A stretch of 64,000 nucleotides of DNA from Myxococcota bacterium (lineage in GTDB: Bacteria > Myxococcota_A > Bradymonadia > UBA7976 > UBA1532), in the NCBI GenBank assembly GCA_036337435.1, contig JAYZEG010000010.1, positions 25,171 to 89,170 of the forward strand. The letters are read 5' to 3'. Of the stretch, positions 3,333-31,008 are shown piece after piece; within the stretch, counting starts at the first letter, position 1; every line of letters starts with the position of its first letter. A program made the position numbers and the translations under genes. Below the pieces are notes generated by a model that saw nothing but the letters and a program-made list of their open reading frames with translations, had not been told where the DNA came from and did not search any database.

Positions 3333-4640
3333 CTATTGGATTGCACCGGAACGGATCCCACTGATAATGTGTCGATAGGTCTCGGCAATGAGACGGTCTG
3401 TTTCGTGATATTTTCGGTGCGCCTGCAGCTGACTGACAATAAAAAACTCTCTCCCTAAATTCAACGTCGGCTGGCCCTGCTCATCTAGGACCGGGAGACA
3501 TGCATACCCGGCGTTGACAAATTCGCCGCCCCTCGAATATCCAAAACCAAGTTTGCTAAAGATTCGCCATTGACCTTGAGCGGCTCTCTCAATCGCTGCC
3601 GTGTCGATGGCGTTTTGCAAATAGACAGTTGGATCTGATTCCATACCTTGTGGCTGCTCATCTTCAAATAAAACCGAATTAGCGGACCCATAAAGCAATG
3701 TTTGAACATCGGGCCATTGAAGATGGGGCATCGCGTATCGCGGGTTTTCTCGGTGCATCACTAACCGTTTAAGGAATTCTGCTATCGTGTATGTGGACAG
3801 CTGATTCTCCGGCCCGTTTCCGTCATCACCAGGCATCTCAATACGCCCTGCCTCGCCAATAAAATAGGTGCCGACGGCGGCACTCGGATGACCATAGTTA
3901 CCACCCAGTGTTTCGTCTTGCGATCTCTGCAACCAGCCTTCATGAATCAAATGATCGAGCTGGGTGCGTGTGCCGATATTGAGAAACCAGCGAGCAAGGC
4001 CATTAGACGTGAATCGCTGCTCATCGTAATTGTGGACAATGGTCGATAAATCACCGATTGGAAGAGAGTCTACTGTGGCCGTGAGCCCAAGTGCGCCATC
4101 AGATGCCTTACGAAGTGCCGCACCCGCATTAGCGACAGCCATGAATTTAGTGGAACTCCAGGGCTGTATAATCACATCGTGAGTTCCATTGCTTAAGTAC
4201 CGATAATGTGGCTCACCATTGACTCGCCTGACCAAAATGACCGTGATATTCATGTCGTCAGGTACAAGGCCAACGAGGGCGTCGCTATCGACCTCCGGGG
4301 CATCGGCTGCGGGTCGATATGTATGAGATTGGTCAGTACTTGTCCCATGGACGTGCGGTGAGCTGTGTTCTGTGGGACATGTGAACTCCCGATCGCGCTG
4401 GGTTGGGATCACCTTGGTACATTTCGTATCGTCTAGATACTCGAAGTAATCGTTAGGAAAGGGGCCGCATTCGTCTCGATTTACTTGAGTCGAATCACCT
4501 TTACCTGGACGATAATCGGAGTCGGGCTGCACAGAATCGGCGCGTGTGTCCATCACCTCCAACTCATCAGAACAACCGGTCACGATAAGACTCACTGCCA
4601 CGAGCAGCTCAACCAATCTGTCGCAAATCCAACGACCCAT
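3333..4640 (-). CDS. lipoprotein, beta-lactamase/transpeptidase-fold serine hydrolase-like (divergent)
   Basis: Lipobox LIVTGC after the internal Met. SxxK motif (WSSTKF), followed by SNG and a later KLGFG, roughly in class-A-like order (SxxK ... SDN ... KTG) but degenerate. Confidence 0.5.
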   Translation of the reverse strand: MGRWICDRLVELLVAVSLIVTGCSDELEVMDTRADSVQPDSDYRPGKGDSTQVNRDECGPFPNDYFEYLDDTKCTKVIPTQRDREFTCPTEHSSPHVHGTSTDQSHTYRPAADAPEVDSDALVGLVPDDMNITVILVRRVNGEPHYRYLSNGTHDVIIQPWSSTKFMAVANAGAALRKASDGALGLTATVDSLPIGDLSTIVHNYDEQRFTSNGLARWFLNIGTRTQLDHLIHEGWLQRSQDETLGGNYGHPSAAVGTYFIGEAGRIEMPGDDGNGPENQLSTYTIAEFLKRLVMHRENPRYAMPHLQWPDVQTLLYGSANSVLFEDEQPQGMESDPTVYLQNAIDTAAIERAAQGQWRIFSKLGFGYSRGGEFVNAGYACLPVLDEQGQPTLNLGREFFIVSQLQAHRKYHETDRLIAETYRHIISGIRSGAIQ

Positions 4641-4955
4641 CTTTTGGACTCCAAAAAACATCCAGTCCGAATAGTCCAGCAAACATCATGCCAGAGCATG
4701 ACACGAGCAAAAAATATTTTGTTCAATATTATTAGAAAGTTAACTGAAATCAATCCGACCAAGCATCAGCTCACCAGAAGCCTGGGTACTCTTGGACACA
4801 GTCATCCAGCCTGACTGGGGACAAAATAGCCCAATGGGGGTTTTTATTTTATTACGAGATCTACTTGGCTATGAAATCATTTGCGGTATACACAGTAGAC
4901 ACATTTGTTTGCCTTTTGTGGTCGACGCTCAACAACACAGTAAACGGATTGCAAG

Positions 4956-12900: not shown

Positions 12901-13773
12901 TCAGCGACTCAGCTGGTAGACATAGTTGGTGTCATACGTCCGTACGAACAGGCGGCCCAACTGATTTAAGTAAAAATCATCCGGCCCGGAACGCACTTTA
13001 TGGCGTTTCAGCACGACGCCTGAGCGCGCGGAGACCTGGTAGATATAATCAGGCTCTGAGGAAAACCCGTATCCGCTGACGATCACATCGCCAATCAGTA
13101 AAAAGCGCTTCGCATTAGACACCAGGGGCGGTGACTGCCAAATGACTTTGCCCGTGGCTGGCTTGACAGCCACCAAGGTCGCATTCCAACCATAAGTGCT
13201 CGCGGCGTATGTGTTGTGACCAACGGAGGCATACATGATTCCGTTCTGCATGATCACATGGCCGAGATTGGCTCCCACGAATTCTTCGTCACCGCTGCGT
13301 ACTCTGCGGGGTGCCAGAAGGGCTTCGAAATCCAGTGCATGAATGCGTTGACCCGCTGCACCAAAAGCGACGGCCCAGCGGCCTGGTGTCCATCGATATC
13401 CGGTTGGTCGTATGCCATAGACGCCGACGACGGGTTGCCCGACGCCTGTGGCCGTTGAATAACTGAGCTGCTGCAACCCGTAGCTCGTTGGAACACTCGG
13501 AAAGACTGTCCGGGTTTGGTCGACGGTGAACATACTGGCTTGGTACCCGACGCTCGCCCTCCACTCATCGTCATCGGTTATCTGATTGCGACGTTCAGAA
13601 AGCTTTCTCAACTTAAGCGGCTTCACTTTCACTTTACATGTCGCGCCATGGCAAATGGCCTTCGACGGAGTCAATTCAACCTTTTTTGATTGTTTGGCGA
13701 GAATTTGCCCAAACGACAATAAAGGGAGCGCAAGCGTTGAACCAAGCACCATCCAGGCGAATGCACGGATCAT
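12901..13773 (-). CDS. hypothetical secreted protein
   Basis: Signal peptide MIRAFAWMVLGSTLALPLLSFG. Gly/Tyr/Trp-rich, beta-rich body with no identifiable motif. Confidence 0.5.
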   Translation of the reverse strand: MIRAFAWMVLGSTLALPLLSFGQILAKQSKKVELTPSKAICHGATCKVKVKPLKLRKLSERRNQITDDDEWRASVGYQASMFTVDQTRTVFPSVPTSYGLQQLSYSTATGVGQPVVGVYGIRPTGYRWTPGRWAVAFGAAGQRIHALDFEALLAPRRVRSGDEEFVGANLGHVIMQNGIMYASVGHNTYAASTYGWNATLVAVKPATGKVIWQSPPLVSNAKRFLLIGDVIVSGYGFSSEPDYIYQVSARSGVVLKRHKVRSGPDDFYLNQLGRLFVRTYDTNYVYQLSR

Positions 13774-20334: not shown

Positions 20335-20450
20335 CCACATAACGACTCGGACATCTGTTTCGGTTCGTCGCTGCTTTCTCGTACCCCCCCATTCCCCTAC
20401 ACGAGAGAGCGGTTGACCGCTCCCTGCCCCGGGAGCGGTTTTTTTTTCTC
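20335..20450 (+). promoter_or_regulatory. candidate 5' leader/attenuator (or small RNA) with alternative hairpins upstream of the peroxiredoxin
   Basis: Extended -10-like TGATAGTAT at about 20319-20327. Hairpin A is GAGCGG-ttga-CCGCTC (20407-20422). It shares CCGCTC with hairpin B, CCGCTCCC-tgcccc-GGGAGCGG plus T9 (20417-20447), so the two are mutually exclusive. Confidence 0.45.
20417..20447 (+). terminator. rho-independent terminator (8-bp GC-rich stem + T9)
   Basis: CCGCTCCC tgcccc GGGAGCGG TTTTTTTTT. No complete plus-strand CDS ends within 500 nt upstream. Confidence 0.7.
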
Positions 20451-27323: not shown

Positions 27324-29066
27324 TCAATTATCAGCCCATTCAATACGGCGGGCGGCTGATACAATATCTGAAGGCAAAGCCGACCGATAGGCCTGGTCGA
27401 AGGCATCGGCCAATTGACCGGCAGTCGAAAACCGGTCTACGGGATCGGGTGCCATGGCGATGCTCAGAAAATCGCTGATCTGCCCATCTAAATCCGGGGC
27501 TACGACCTGAGGGCGAGTTGGCCTTTGATACGCTGCTGCCGCAACGGCATTAAAGCCAGACCCCTGGAAGGGCGGTGCGCCAGTCAAGCAGCGGTAGAGA
27601 ACCGCACCCAGTGCATACAAATCTGTACGGTGATCTAGCTCGTGTCCTCGAGCCTGCTCAGGTGCCATATATCGGGGCGTTCCAACCACACAGCCGGCAT
27701 GTGTCAATGTCTCGGCACCGGTCGTCCACTTTGAAACACCAAAATCGAGTACCTTCCAAACATTTCGAGTACTGCTTTCTCGGTGCGCGAAAAGATTATG
27801 GGGTTTAATGTCCCGGTGGATAACGCCTTGTTCGTGTGCGGCCGTGAGCCCGCGGCAGATGTGATGTACGAGACGGTGACATGCCCGAACGGATAAGCGT
27901 CCGCGGCGCCTCAGAATCGCGGCCAAGTCATGTCCGTCGAGACGCTCCATTGCGATATATAACGTTCCATCAGTGTCTTGACCAAATTCATACACTTGCG
28001 TCACATGTGGCGACCGGATCTGGCGGGCAATTTGTGCCTCGCGCTTGAATCGAGACACGATGGCTTCATTCTGAGTGTCTGACGTGTTCAGAATTTTAAG
28101 TGCTGACCGTTTTCCGCTCTTTTGCTCAACCGCGTCGTACACTTCACCAGATGCACCCCGCCCGAGTAAGGGACCTAGGCGGTAATCTGAAATTGACTGG
28201 CCTGTCAGGCGACCAGACAAGCCCTCATCCCCGAAAATTCTTTCCAACTCAGCTTGGGCTTCTTCGAGCTGAACTTTTTTTAAATTGATGTCCATAACGG
28301 CACTTGCAACCGAGCCCATAGCATTTTCAACCGCGTCCCGTGACCAAGTGGCCTGGGCAAAAGTGACGAGCAGAACCATGGGAACCATCAGGGTCATAAA
28401 GAGCATAGCCGATGCCCCCGCGTTGTTCCCGGTGAAAACGCCGATATCCTGGATTCGCCCTGTCAAGACACCAAGGAACAAAGCGAGGGTTAAAATAATG
28501 GCTGCAGAGCAAATGAGTACGGCGCCTCTTCGGTCAGCACCTTGCCCAAAAAAGCTGATACCGAGAGTGATGGCGAGCGCAGTTGGCGAATATGGCCCCA
28601 AATAAATAAGCGCGTTTACACAAGCAACGACACCCACGATTCCGAAAATCCGAAACACGTTGCGATCGTATTTTTTGGGATTCTTGGCAACCCTCCAAAC
28701 ACCCAGACCTGTCAGTGCGAAAACGAAGAGGGTCGACGCAAAAATCAAGCTGTGTCCGCTGTGACCGGAATCTAAAAACGGCAGCCAAGCGAGTGTAACC
28801 AGACAAATCACACTGAATATGAGTCCGATATTGCTTGCACGGATCGCTTCAGCTTCATGCAAACTGAGCTGTATATGTGAAACGGTCACCGCTGATTCAG
28901 GGCGTCGATCAAGATTTGAATGATCAACAGAAATTGGATTGGAGGGTGCGCGCTGGCCTGTTTGTATGGTGACGTCTTGTTCAATATGCCGAACCGCCCG
29001 GTCGGTCAGATTCTGAATTGACTCGATTGGAAAACGAGCGTCGGGTTTTCTGGGCTCAGACATCAA
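27324..29066 (-). CDS. Ser/Thr protein kinase with N-terminal polytopic membrane domain
   Basis: Hanks motifs LGRGASGEVY, ALKIL, HRDIKPHNLF, DFGVSK and GTPRYMAPE in the C-terminal half. About 6 TM helices in the N-terminal half. Confidence 0.8.
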   Translation of the reverse strand: MMSEPRKPDARFPIESIQNLTDRAVRHIEQDVTIQTGQRAPSNPISVDHSNLDRRPESAVTVSHIQLSLHEAEAIRASNIGLIFSVICLVTLAWLPFLDSGHSGHSLIFASTLFVFALTGLGVWRVAKNPKKYDRNVFRIFGIVGVVACVNALIYLGPYSPTALAITLGISFFGQGADRRGAVLICSAAIILTLALFLGVLTGRIQDIGVFTGNNAGASAMLFMTLMVPMVLLVTFAQATWSRDAVENAMGSVASAVMDINLKKVQLEEAQAELERIFGDEGLSGRLTGQSISDYRLGPLLGRGASGEVYDAVEQKSGKRSALKILNTSDTQNEAIVSRFKREAQIARQIRSPHVTQVYEFGQDTDGTLYIAMERLDGHDLAAILRRRGRLSVRACHRLVHHICRGLTAAHEQGVIHRDIKPHNLFAHRESSTRNVWKVLDFGVSKWTTGAETLTHAGCVVGTPRYMAPEQARGHELDHRTDLYALGAVLYRCLTGAPPFQGSGFNAVAAAAYQRPTRPQVVAPDLDGQISDFLSIAMAPDPVDRFSTAGQLADAFDQAYRSALPSDIVSAARRIEWADN

Positions 29067-29476
29067 CTGCGTCCAACATGGCTAGGTCTCGATTAGTCTA
29101 GCATGATCTTATCGTCTGCACCCATGTTCATTGGACATCCGACTCTATTCTAAACGGATAGCATCATCGGAATGTCACAGGTCAAACGTAGATGACTGAC
29201 CGACGGGCTGACGCCTCAATTATAACGCCCGATGAGGGCAATTAATGACTCGGTCTTTTGACCCCACTTGTGTGACCTACTGTCCACATTTATCGGTTCA
29301 TGACGGCAAGGTTCACCTGAGCTTGGCCTCCCCGTAAACTTGGCATGCGGCTTGCTATCTCATGGACGCAGGAAAGCAACTTGGGTCCAGAAGGAGGACC
29401 ACCACGAGGGTCGATGCCGTGACACGTACGTCAACGCATCGGACAAGAAATTCAGTCTCGGCCTACAAGCTATAGA

Positions 29477-29533
29477 GGTAGCGGGCATCACGTCCCCCAT
29501 CCCCCCCAGTGGATGCTCGCTACCCTCATTTTT
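29477..29533 (+). repeat. hairpin repeat copy 1 (13-bp stem, C-rich 22-nt loop, T5 tail)
   Basis: GGTAGCGGGCATC ... GATGCTCGCTACC, with one G:U position, then CTCATTTTT. Confidence 0.7.
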
Positions 29534-29598
29534 ACCAGGGTGCGTGACAGTCTGGTTGCTAAATGAGGGTGCTCAATAAGCGAGTCAGACAGGCTAAA

Positions 29599-29657
29599 GG
29601 TAGCGGGCATCACGCCCCCGTCCCCCCAACAGGATGCTCGCTACCTCTCATTTTTTT
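29599..29657 (+). repeat. hairpin repeat copy 2 (same stem, C-rich loop, T7 tail)
   Basis: GGTAGCGGGCATC acgcccccgtccccccaacag GATGCTCGCTACC tctcaTTTTTTT. Confidence 0.7.
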
Positions 29658-29713
29658 CGGTAGGCAAGCCGTAAACCCATACGCGTTGCGGTTCTTGACA
29701 TGACCTAAACTCT

Positions 29714-29773
29714 AGGCAGCGGGTATCCGTCTCCCCTCCGTCCCCCAAACAGGATACTCGCTGCCTCGCCTCA
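29714..29773 (+). repeat. hairpin repeat copy 3 (stem with compensatory substitutions, no T-run)
   Basis: GGCAGCGGGTATC ... GATACTCGCTGCC. Both changes relative to copies 1 and 2 (T to C, C to T) are matched on the opposite arm. Confidence 0.65.
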
Positions 29774-29826
29774 CTTAAAACAAAGCAGCTACCAGGGACC
29801 AGACGGGTTGGTCAATACCCCCGAAA

Positions 29827-31008
29827 TTAAGAGAATAGCGACGACGAAAATGGGGGGATCAGCTTCATGGCAGTTGCCACAATGTACGCAGTCCAGAAAA
29901 TGTACAAACTGCCGAGGAACCAGCCTCTTCCCTTACCAACGCTGACAGTTCGAGTCCCATCATCGGCGGTGCCTCGAGGCCCAGTCAGAAAGGTCAACAA
30001 GATAATGACGGTTGCGCCAACCAAGATAATTCGAAGGTCTTGAACTGCCGCCCCGCTTCCAGCTGTACCGCCCGTCAATGCGATCTCACTGCCGTTGTAG
30101 AGGCAGTAGGCCAGCAGGGGTAATCCCAAGGCAACACAGATGTCGAAAATATTACTCCCAACAGCATTAGACACCGCATCGTCGTAATCTCCCTTCATCG
30201 CGTCTTTGTAGGAGATGACGGTATCTGGAACGCTGGTTGCCGCAGCCCCCAGGATGACAGCAGTGAAGTATGCTGGTACACCGAGTGCGTCAGCGGAATG
30301 GATTACGGCCTCGGCTAAGAAATAGCATGCACCGCCGATGGTTGCCGTGGCGCAAATCAGAACGACCCATGCGGAGCCTTTGGTAAACTCGTTGCCGCCA
30401 TAAATCAGATTATTGTAATCGAAGGTAAGCAGATTGGCGACAAAGCCCTTATGCTCGTCCTCCTCATCATCATCATCATCGTCGTCGTCATCATCTCCCC
30501 CGCCCATGCCACGAAGGAGAACGCCAAAGTAGACGACATAAATACCGATCAAAGCTGCACCCATCCACCAAGCCAATGCGGTGTTGCCGAGAAATACGAT
30601 GAGTGCGACCTCAGCTAGGATGAAGAAGAATCCGTCTCGCAGAAGCGTACTCTGCCCCAAACTAACGCTGTTAATTACCTCGCCATTTACGCCTTTCGTG
30701 GTCACGGCAATAATGCAGACGGCTGGTATGACAGCTGCATTGAACACGGCACTGCCCGCGCATGTTGCGATACCAGCGGAGAAGCCATCGGTGTCGTGAT
30801 AGAGAAAGAGCAGAAATAAGGTGGTGAACAATTCCGGTAGAGAACTTGCGATCGCTTCGATGGTCGCGCCTCGAATACCGGGCTTCATCTTATAGACTTT
30901 CTTCCCCAAATGGTCTGAAGCCCCCTCAAACGAATCGCAGGCGAACTTAATGACATACATCGCGGCACAAACCAGCCCTAAAGACTGCATGAGTTTCGTT
31001 ACGTCCAA
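29827..31008 (-). CDS. Na+/Ca2+ exchanger-family (CaCA) membrane protein
   Basis: Two alpha-repeat signatures (GATIEAIASSLPELFTT and GSNIFDICVALGLP) separated by a cytoplasmic loop carrying D10-E tracts. Confidence 0.8.
   Translation of the reverse strand: MDVTKLMQSLGLVCAAMYVIKFACDSFEGASDHLGKKVYKMKPGIRGATIEAIASSLPELFTTLFLLFLYHDTDGFSAGIATCAGSAVFNAAVIPAVCIIAVTTKGVNGEVINSVSLGQSTLLRDGFFFILAEVALIVFLGNTALAWWMGAALIGIYVVYFGVLLRGMGGGDDDDDDDDDDEEDEHKGFVANLLTFDYNNLIYGGNEFTKGSAWVVLICATATIGGACYFLAEAVIHSADALGVPAYFTAVILGAAATSVPDTVISYKDAMKGDYDDAVSNAVGSNIFDICVALGLPLLAYCLYNGSEIALTGGTAGSGAAVQDLRIILVGATVIILLTFLTGPRGTADDGTRTVSVGKGRGWFLGSLYIFWTAYIVATAMKLIPPFSSSLFS

Follow-up and report, generated by a model that had tools for sequence, protein, structure and literature searches.

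The 64,000-nucleotide stretch of DNA that we analysed (hereinafter the window) carries three tandem hairpins between a Ser/Thr kinase gene and a CaCA exchanger gene (Table 1). Each hairpin spans 47-51 nt, with start-to-start distances of 122 and 116 nt, and comprises a stem of 13-15 pairs, the arms of which (13-15 nt) are 92-93% complementary, and a C-rich, G-poor loop of 21-23 nt; the single imperfect position in each window stem is a G opposite a T on the plus strand. An earlier description of the locus made from the DNA alone (the sequence-only reading) had placed three such hairpins between these genes, and its coordinates, spacing and account of the stem-loop shape are confirmed here. It had further claimed that two substitutions on the 5′ arm of the third copy are exactly compensated on the 3′ arm, and this is a direct reading of the sequence: relative to copies 1 and 2, the 5′ arm of module 3 changes from GGTAGCGGGCATC to GGCAGCGGGTATC and the 3′ arm from GATGCTCGCTACC to GATACTCGCTGCC, turning a T-A pair into C-G and a C-G pair into T-A. 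Likewise, the runs of T5 and T7 that it noted at the ends of copies 1 and 2 and the absence of a plus-strand gene upstream of the array both hold; copy 3 is not followed by a T run. The 13-mers of the arms have no other occurrence within the 64 kb window, and a generic scan of the whole window for stems of at least 14 bp bearing a C-rich, G-poor loop of at least 17 nt recovered the array and one other locus.

Table 1. Positions within the window of the features discussed in the text.
Feature	Position	Strand	Details
Second sRNA-like gene (predicted)	~20342-20448	+	small 5′ hairpin; then a 13-bp stem with loop ACCCCCCCAUUCCCCUAC; then terminator
Ser/Thr kinase gene	27324-29066	-	flanks the array
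Upstream box	29259-29276	+	TGACCCCACTTGTGTGAC; 18 nt; pattern TGACCCCAC-N3-TGTGAC
Sigma-54-type -24/-12 promoter (predicted)	29341-29356	+	TGGCATGCGGCTTGCT; pattern TGGCAY-N5-TTGCT
Non-coding 5′ leader (predicted)	29367-29476	+	start near 29367 deduced from the position of the promoter
Small 5′ leader hairpin (predicted fold)	29384-29400	+	GGUCC-AGAAGGA-GGACC
Hairpin module 1	29477-29524	+	arms 29477-29489/29512-29524; loop ACGUCCCCCAUCCCCCCCAGUG; then U5 at 29529-29533
Spacer stem-loop between modules 1 and 2	29522-29570	+	ACCCUCAUUU pairs with AAAUGAGGGU; U run included
Hairpin module 2	29598-29646 (29598/9-29645/6)	+	arms 29598-29611/29633-29646; loop ACGCCCCCGUCCCCCCAACAG; then U7 at 29651-29657
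Hairpin module 3	29714-29766 (29714/5-29765/6)	+	arms 29714-29728/29752-29766; loop GUCUCCCCUCCGUCCCCCAAACA; no U run
CaCA exchanger gene	29827-31008	-	flanks the array

Folded as plus-strand RNA, the window hairpins reach -22 to -25.5 kcal/mol, with z-scores of -2.1, -2.0 and -5.5 for modules 1, 2 and 3 in contexts of 76-83 nt; mirror hairpins do not form on the minus strand. The folding of each unit that the sequence-only reading had proposed as a check thus bears out the hairpins for one strand and not for the other. The spacer between modules 1 and 2 forms a further stem-loop on a perfect 10-bp inverted repeat (-28.5 kcal/mol, z = -2.9). In a canonical intrinsic terminator a G+C-rich stem carries a loop of 3-8 nt, and the U tract follows the stem without a gap. 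In the array, U5 and U7 begin 4-5 nt past the stems of modules 1 and 2, and a terminator scan called none of the three window hairpins, which have G+C-rich stems, loops of 21-23 nt and, in the case of module 3, no U tract. Loops of this length are unusual for terminators, and, with module 3 lacking a U run, the 3′ end of the predicted transcript is not fixed.

The CaCA protein of the window is 100% identical to one from a Myxococcota MAG. We then compared the window with the contigs that encode the closest CaCA homologues, each read on the strand matching the plus strand of the window. The first of these (L006; CaCA 93% identical) has the same gene order as the window and two copies of the hairpin; the second (L007; 84% identical), a contig of 1.86 Mb, has nine, against three in the window; and the third (L132; 89% identical) is a 1.5 kb contig that terminates within a 3′ arm (...GCCCGCTGCC). 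The comparative set is small, with three full loci plus a single fragment, and the relatives are close ones (CaCA 84-93% identical). In all four lineages the array lies beyond the 3′ end of the CaCA gene, a common location that in such close relatives may reflect no more than limited rearrangement. The gene on its other side is the kinase in the window and L006, and a sigma-54 activator gene takes this place in L007. The interval between the final module and the CaCA stop codon is 61 to 321 nt long across the full loci, in all three of which this module lacks a U run. Module 3 is orthologous to the second copy of L006, with which it has the flank (a)actctagg in common, and the L007 array is a 104-nt tandem repeat with 97% identity between units, spacers included. 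Around CaCA homologues of at most 72% identity (L008, L133, L134 and L135) we found other neighbours and no array, so the element appears to be confined to a narrow clade; a C-rich hairpin-like string in L008 was judged unrelated to it.

An alignment of 10 distinct copies from three loci (alignment A2) yielded a 14-pair helix in which 95% of the cells are paired and 5 of the 14 stem pairs show double compensatory changes (e.g., U-A/C-G at columns 9/57, A-U/G-C at 17/49 and C-G/U-A at 16/50). RNAalifold recovered this helix unprompted, and pairing fell to 33-61% when the 3′ partners were slid as a control. None of 500 column shuffles equalled the observed pairing or covariation score, a statistic that overstates the support, since the copies are paralogues and close orthologues, and by our count the independent double substitutions number about five. 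Read on the plus strand, the 13 wobble cells are without exception G·U or U·G; they would hence become A·C mismatches on the minus strand, a pattern that argues for RNA over duplex DNA. Together with the failure of the minus strand to fold into these hairpins, this exclusive use of G·U wobbles points to the plus strand, with its C-rich loops, as the functional single strand.

The loops are conserved in a different manner. Their core CGUCCCCC is invariant across the copies, and the octamer CGTCCCCC was found in 14 of 14 copies, preceded by a run of C that extends from C4 to C7 in L007. When whole units were aligned, identity was limited to about 50 hairpin columns, and the spacers were essentially impossible to align. 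Some spacers form stem-loops of their own: the one between modules 1 and 2 has a homologous but weaker stem in L006, and L007 has a 10-bp stem. By these patterns of substitution, it is the structure of the stem and the sequence of the loop core that are kept, and selection acts on the hairpin and not on the repeat unit. The claim of the sequence-only reading that selection on the stems is for their secondary structure is accordingly supported, and strengthened, by the comparison with the three related contigs. Its suggestion of stacked orphan terminators fares less well, as it leaves the invariant loop core and the loops of 21-23 nt unexplained.

Upstream of the array, the aligned regions of the window, L006 and L007 are conserved only in an 18-nt box and a promoter block amid diverged sequence. 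The promoter block matches the sigma-54 -24/-12 consensus, quoted as TGGCAC-N5-TTGCW (PMC4253122), and has counterparts in the equivalent place in L006 (TGGCATACAGCTTGCT) and L007 (TGGCACATACATTGCT); in each of the three full loci it faces the array from 97-110 nt before the first hairpin. The window holds two exact matches to TGGCAY-N5-TTGCT where chance would give 0.14; a lone match to a sigma-54 motif in 64 kb could arise by chance, and the case for the predicted promoter rests on its conservation. The box precedes the promoter by about 80-105 nt; L006 has it unchanged, and L007 departs from it in the 3-nt centre only (TGACCCCACTGCTGTGAC). The window, L006 and L007 each contain the box once, 133 other loci examined do not contain it, and we infer it to be a candidate activator-binding site. 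The sequence-only reading had overlooked both the promoter and the box, which together offer an account of how the plus strand could be transcribed with no plus-strand gene upstream. No sigma-70-like site was found on the array strand in the window, L006 or L007, and none inside any array. As promoter-like sites are lacking within the arrays and a unit of 104-122 nt leaves no room for a box, a promoter and a leader, each array appears to be served by one promoter. On these comparisons of sequence, it is well supported that the hairpins are real and that they form a structured RNA element which, like its sigma-54-type promoter, is conserved.

The predicted leader between promoter and first hairpin also looks non-coding: no ORF is common to the window, L006 and L007, the leader of L006 having stops in all frames, and the ORF at 29340-29579 in the window has no Pfam match. 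The position of the small leader hairpin forms a hairpin in L006 and L007 as well, with different letters in the stem. In the annotation of L007 a 40-codon ORF is called over the leader and the first hairpin, and the element thus marks sequence prone to mis-annotation by gene callers.

With regard to a possible activator, L007 and a further locus (L129) encode a sigma-54 activator with a nearby TGGCAC-N5-TCGCT promoter before a divergent operon, and sigma-54 is evidently in use within the clade. In L007 (and in L129, judging by its flank) the activator gene stops about 75 nt short of the box and runs in the same direction as the array, a suggestive arrangement. The L007 activator has no receiver domain on record; the divergent operon beside it codes for a protein of about 200 aa and two Band_7 proteins. 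Relatives of the activator at 54% identity (L130 and L131) keep the Band_7 operon and have no array downstream, the box is absent upstream of the Band_7 operon, and no homologue of a sigma-54 activator is encoded in the 64 kb window. For these reasons we could not assign the L007 activator as the regulator of the array: it looks committed to the Band_7 operon, its conserved partner.

Several further identities were considered for the array. Against Rfam, no family reached its gathering score anywhere in the window, and a search of 29100-29900 with E-values up to 10 gave a spurious XIST A-repeat as its sole match. A covariance model of the hairpin built from alignment A2, which scores modules 1, 2 and 3 at 66.1, 73.2 and 72.9 bits, detected only these three copies in the 64 kb window, even with filters off, and in related loci only the arrays of L006 and L007. 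An exact pattern scan of 185,579 representative genomes, the source genome not being among them, returned five matches, about the chance level, which sit in coding-like high-GC sequence and lack C-rich loops. The same kind of scan gave chance matches in high-GC contigs for those metagenome contigs that were inspected among the matches listed, which makes it uninformative on distribution, and no match in viral contigs. A dispersed REP-like family, one of four options raised by the sequence-only reading, is accordingly not supported: the covariance search that it had proposed found no copies beyond the array locus in the window or the related loci, and no match with the stem came from the 185,579 representative genomes. 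We also rejected a CRISPR array, given that the 104-nt unit of L007 repeats spacer and all at 97% identity. Typical rut sites are C-rich, G-poor tracts of roughly 70-80 nt. The C-rich stretches of the array are about 20 nt long and lie between G-containing stems, and we found no support for the proposal of rut-like or protein-binding sites. Of the four options, tandem small-RNA genes came closest, with the qualification that no unit has its own promoter and that the array looks like a single transcript divided into modules.

A weak covariance-model match brought to light a second sRNA-like gene in the window (Table 1). It is predicted to end in a canonical terminator (CCGCUCCC...GGGAGCGG, then U9), and both the RNA and its upstream region are conserved in L006, with substitutions that preserve pairing; against Rfam it gave matches only far below threshold. 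With the array, the organism would thus have at least two loci for RNAs with C-rich loops.

In its architecture the array is closest to NrsZ and shows parallels to Pxr and the CcsR/cuckoo RNAs. From its predicted features it is nevertheless a member of none of these, because loop motifs, unit structures and gene contexts differ, no Rfam match was obtained and similarity to Pxr is at chance. NrsZ of Pseudomonas depends on sigma-54 (RpoN) and NtrC and adjoins ntrC; it has one to six repeated stem-loops, depending on the species, with a conserved loop motif and spacer stem-loops between them, and its primary transcript is processed into single modules of ~44 nt (PMC4253122). Like NrsZ, the array, known here from sequence prediction, combines a sigma-54 promoter with repeated stem-loops on one predicted primary transcript; it, too, is intergenic and, in the case of L007, has a gene for a sigma-54 activator next to it; the number of modules varies in both (1-6 in NrsZ versus 2-9 in the array), and in both the spacers can form stem-loops. 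However, NrsZ belongs to another phylum and shows no sequence or Rfam similarity to the array, its loop motif is ACAGGCAG whereas the array loops are C-rich with the core CGUCCCCC, its modules of ~44 nt have short stems, and the L007 activator is not an NtrC-type response regulator, the window having none at all. The NrsZ family is represented in Rfam.

Within the Myxococcota themselves, Pxr, a developmental sRNA of Myxococcus xanthus, is a single 108-nt RNA of three stem-loops (SL1-SL3) encoded between pxrR, an NtrC-like response regulator gene, and an NADH dehydrogenase gene; it lies downstream of this sigma-54 activator gene, has a predicted sigma-54 promoter, and requires for its function the loop of the first stem-loop, a C-rich one to judge by the primer sequence in print (PMC5568312, PMC5684412). 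It has been reported only from Cystobacterineae, with tandem paralogs in Cystobacter that each have their own sigma-54 promoter (PMC5568312, PMC5684412). The phylum, the upstream sigma-54 promoter (predicted from sequence for the array), the C-rich loop and the tandem paralogs of some genera are points of likeness. In contrast to Pxr with its SL1-SL3 in 108 nt, the array units are single hairpins, and their neighbours are a kinase and CaCA (window and L006) or an activator and CaCA (L007), with no pxrR or NADH dehydrogenase gene. Local alignments with what has been published of the Pxr sequence (positions 13-33 and 48-111) scored no better than shuffled sequences, and similarity to Pxr beyond chance was rejected. 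The CcsR1-4/cuckoo RNAs of Alphaproteobacteria are tandem sRNAs that share one promoter and one transcript, from which RNase E produces the mature forms, and their C-rich loops act as anti-Shine-Dalgarno seeds; each unit has two hairpins with a CCUCCUCCC motif, the promoter is RpoHI/HII-dependent and a DUF1127 gene is linked (PMC8034643). The array resembles them in its tandem homologous units and C-rich hairpin loops, but has one hairpin per unit, no CCUCCUCCC loop, no RpoHI/HII-dependent promoter, and a kinase and CaCA rather than DUF1127 at its flanks. C-rich loops or stretches, terminator loops included, that pair with G-rich ribosome-binding regions are also known from LhrC1-5 of Listeria, RsaE/RoxS of Firmicutes and the 6C RNA of Actinobacteria; LhrC1-4 are tandem genes, and each LhrC copy has its own promoter and terminator. 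These RNAs belong to unrelated phyla, and the array has no Rfam match to connect it to them. We regard the array as an undescribed RNA family that brings known design features together in a lineage whose RNA biology is almost blank.

On balance, we lean towards a reading in which the hairpins are modules of one plus-strand non-coding RNA, made from a sigma-54-dependent promoter, whose C-rich loops pair with G-rich partners. An enhancer-binding protein, probably acting via the upstream box, would activate sigma-54-dependent transcription, and the primary transcript would consist of a leader of ~110 nt followed by the stem-loop modules (three in the window, between 2 and 9 in relatives). Every module would present a single-stranded C-rich loop of 21-23 nt, with the core CGUCCCCC, on a stable stem of ~14 bp. 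The U runs might make modules 1 and 2 leaky terminators and so give rise to a nested set of transcripts; alternatively, an RNase could cut in the A/U-rich spacers and free single modules. Modules 2 and 3 have been kept while the spacers diverged, which implies that they are expressed and hence that transcription passes module 1; such read-through would in turn mean that the module 1 hairpin with its U run terminates no more than part of the transcripts, or else that the RNA undergoes processing. The loops would serve as seeds for G-rich, GGGGGACG-like sites near or overlapping the ribosome-binding sites of mRNAs encoded elsewhere, and the number of modules would set the regulatory dose. We infer this base-pairing function from the architecture and from precedent. 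A search by duplex energy for mRNA targets among the neighbouring genes gave none that was convincing or conserved in all three species; the best non-self duplex site, near 406 on the minus strand, lies within a coding region. The absence of targets in 64 kb is weak evidence either way.

The same transcript could instead act as a decoy, the sigma-54-driven hairpins soaking up a C-rich-binding protein or a G-rich small RNA by the logic of CsrB/RsmZ or CrcZ, with copy number as capacity. Many near-identical loops per transcript, a copy number that shifts fast (from 2 to 3 to 9) and a conserved loop that would suit a protein site as well as a seed are all in keeping with such a sponge, as is the want of a nearby mRNA target, though missing targets within 64 kb say little. 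Another partner is conceivable, too, in that M. xanthus is reported to be without hfq (PMC5684412). We nonetheless consider the decoy unlikely, as no candidate for a C-rich-binding protein is linked to the array in the loci examined. Known bacterial sponge RNAs, moreover, carry GGA or A-rich motifs and not C runs. On a further reading, the array and the second RNA would together represent an old, Myxococcota-wide class of regulators, driven by sigma-54 or stress signals and ancestral to Pxr, or else the loops would be a titratable decoy for a G-rich RNA or the translation machinery; this we regard as quite unlikely.

The position of the array, beside the CaCA 3′ end in four lineages while the other neighbour differs, raises the alternative of a function in cis, in which a stack of terminators would damp read-through towards the convergent CaCA gene or a metered antisense transcript would lower its expression. 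T5 and T7 after modules 1 and 2 would fit such a device, as would a last module without a U run in the three full loci. Yet the invariant 8-nt loop core and the long loops would go unexplained, the gap between the last module and the CaCA stop is variable, L007 has a terminator-like site for CaCA between that gene and the array, and among such close kin the common location may reflect limited rearrangement; we thus hold a role in cis to be very unlikely. That the array always lies past the CaCA stop codon, with two G runs per loop on the minus strand, could also suggest an element of the 3′ UTR of the CaCA mRNA with G-rich loops, e.g., a stability element or a G-quadruplex. It is extremely improbable that this is so: on that strand the 13 wobble pairs turn into A·C mismatches and no hairpins fold, the conserved promoter and box are oriented the opposite way, and terminator-like structures separate the CaCA stop from the array. 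An equally slight probability attaches to a selfish or DNA-level repeat devoid of RNA function, such as a REP/MITE-like palindrome or a recombination or protein-binding site. The units are indeed palindromic, tandem and unstable in number, with 97% identical copies in L007; but neither the rest of the window nor ~110 kb of related and control loci yielded further copies, the representative genomes gave no genuine match, the L007 spacers are identical among themselves, unlike those of a CRISPR array, and wobbles confined to G·U are a signature of single-stranded RNA that would be unexpected for sites in duplex DNA.

Almost nothing is known of the RNA regulators of uncultured marine Myxococcota, and in the literature examined Pxr is the one well-studied sRNA of the phylum. 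If the preferred reading of a modular, base-pairing RNA is correct, the locus would be a compact unit of activator site, sigma-54 promoter and a modular RNA that varies from 2 to 9 modules among close relatives. It would then represent a second, independent case of the NrsZ type, with repeated loop modules under a single sigma-54 promoter, suggesting that this architecture evolves repeatedly, and would provide a handle on how the number of modules tunes dose. Should the array, the second RNA and Pxr prove to share an old class, the Pxr-type design would not be a recent one in Cystobacterineae.

The window carries, separately from the array of three tandem C-rich-loop hairpins, a further C-rich-loop sRNA-like gene, with an orthologue in L006, a related contig that bears the same array. 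The window copy consists, in order, of a small 5′ hairpin, a 13-bp stem-loop (about 20368-20415) with an 18-nt C-rich loop, ACCCCCCCAUUCCCCUAC, and a canonical terminator, CCGCTCCC-tgcccc-GGGAGCGG followed by T9. Folding z-scores are -4.8 for the window gene and -6.5 for the L006 orthologue, and between the two, pairing is retained through substitutions (G-C to G·U and U·G to U-A); the block upstream of the gene is likewise conserved. The sole Rfam matches to the window gene lie far under threshold (anti-hemB, 18.9 bits against the 49.5 required).

In the array itself, the 5′ arm of module 1 (29474-29489) is also complementary to the 3′ arm of module 2 (29633-29648; 16 nt, 94%), and when the predicted transcript is folded over its whole 424 nt, the lowest-energy structure has this long-range pairing in place of both local hairpins. 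The hairpin pair directly past the CaCA stop codon, together with the UUUGUUUU that follows it, is a likely CaCA terminator, at which the CaCA transcript would end before reaching the array. This stretch surfaced solely through a match to the XIST A-repeat, which we judged spurious. The central loop of the CaCA exchanger (residues about 170-185) has ten consecutive Asp residues followed by EEDE.

Features of the window and of array-bearing or related contigs
Feature	Location	Strand	Basis or remark
sRNA-like gene, separate from array	window 20342-20448	+	structure and conservation in L006
Orthologue of sRNA-like gene	L006 about 13345-13450	-	
Two small hairpins, then UUUGUUUU	window 29776-29815	-	directly past CaCA stop codon
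CaCA exchanger	window 29827-31008	-	
Exact TGGCAY-N5-TTGCT match, TGGCATGATGTTTGCT	window 4678-4693	-	pattern scan
Nine array units	L007 11513-12396	-	
Sigma-54 activator and divergent operon	L007 12699-17383		also in L129, L130, L131

Besides the one at the predicted array promoter, the window has only one exact TGGCAY-N5-TTGCT match; located at the 5′ end of a 449-aa ORF (3333-4682, minus strand) for which no Pfam domain was matched, it may be a second sigma-54 promoter. The related contig L007 has, between the kinase gene and the array, a five-gene block that is missing from this position in the window and L006. It includes the gene for a sigma-54 activator, in which no receiver domain is recorded, and a divergent operon, preceded by a TGGCAC-N5-TCGCT promoter motif (L007 14126), for a protein of about 200 aa and two Band_7 proteins. 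The arrangement, which resembles that of PspF and the psp operon, is kept down to 54% identity.

A gene caller annotated a 40-codon ORF in L007 (12356-12478), running from the leader into hairpin 1. Together with their spacers, the nine units of the L007 array share 97% identity; most of the differences concern how many C residues make up the run in the loop (C4 to C7), a pattern in the sequence that suggests recent amplification or gene conversion, together with slippage.
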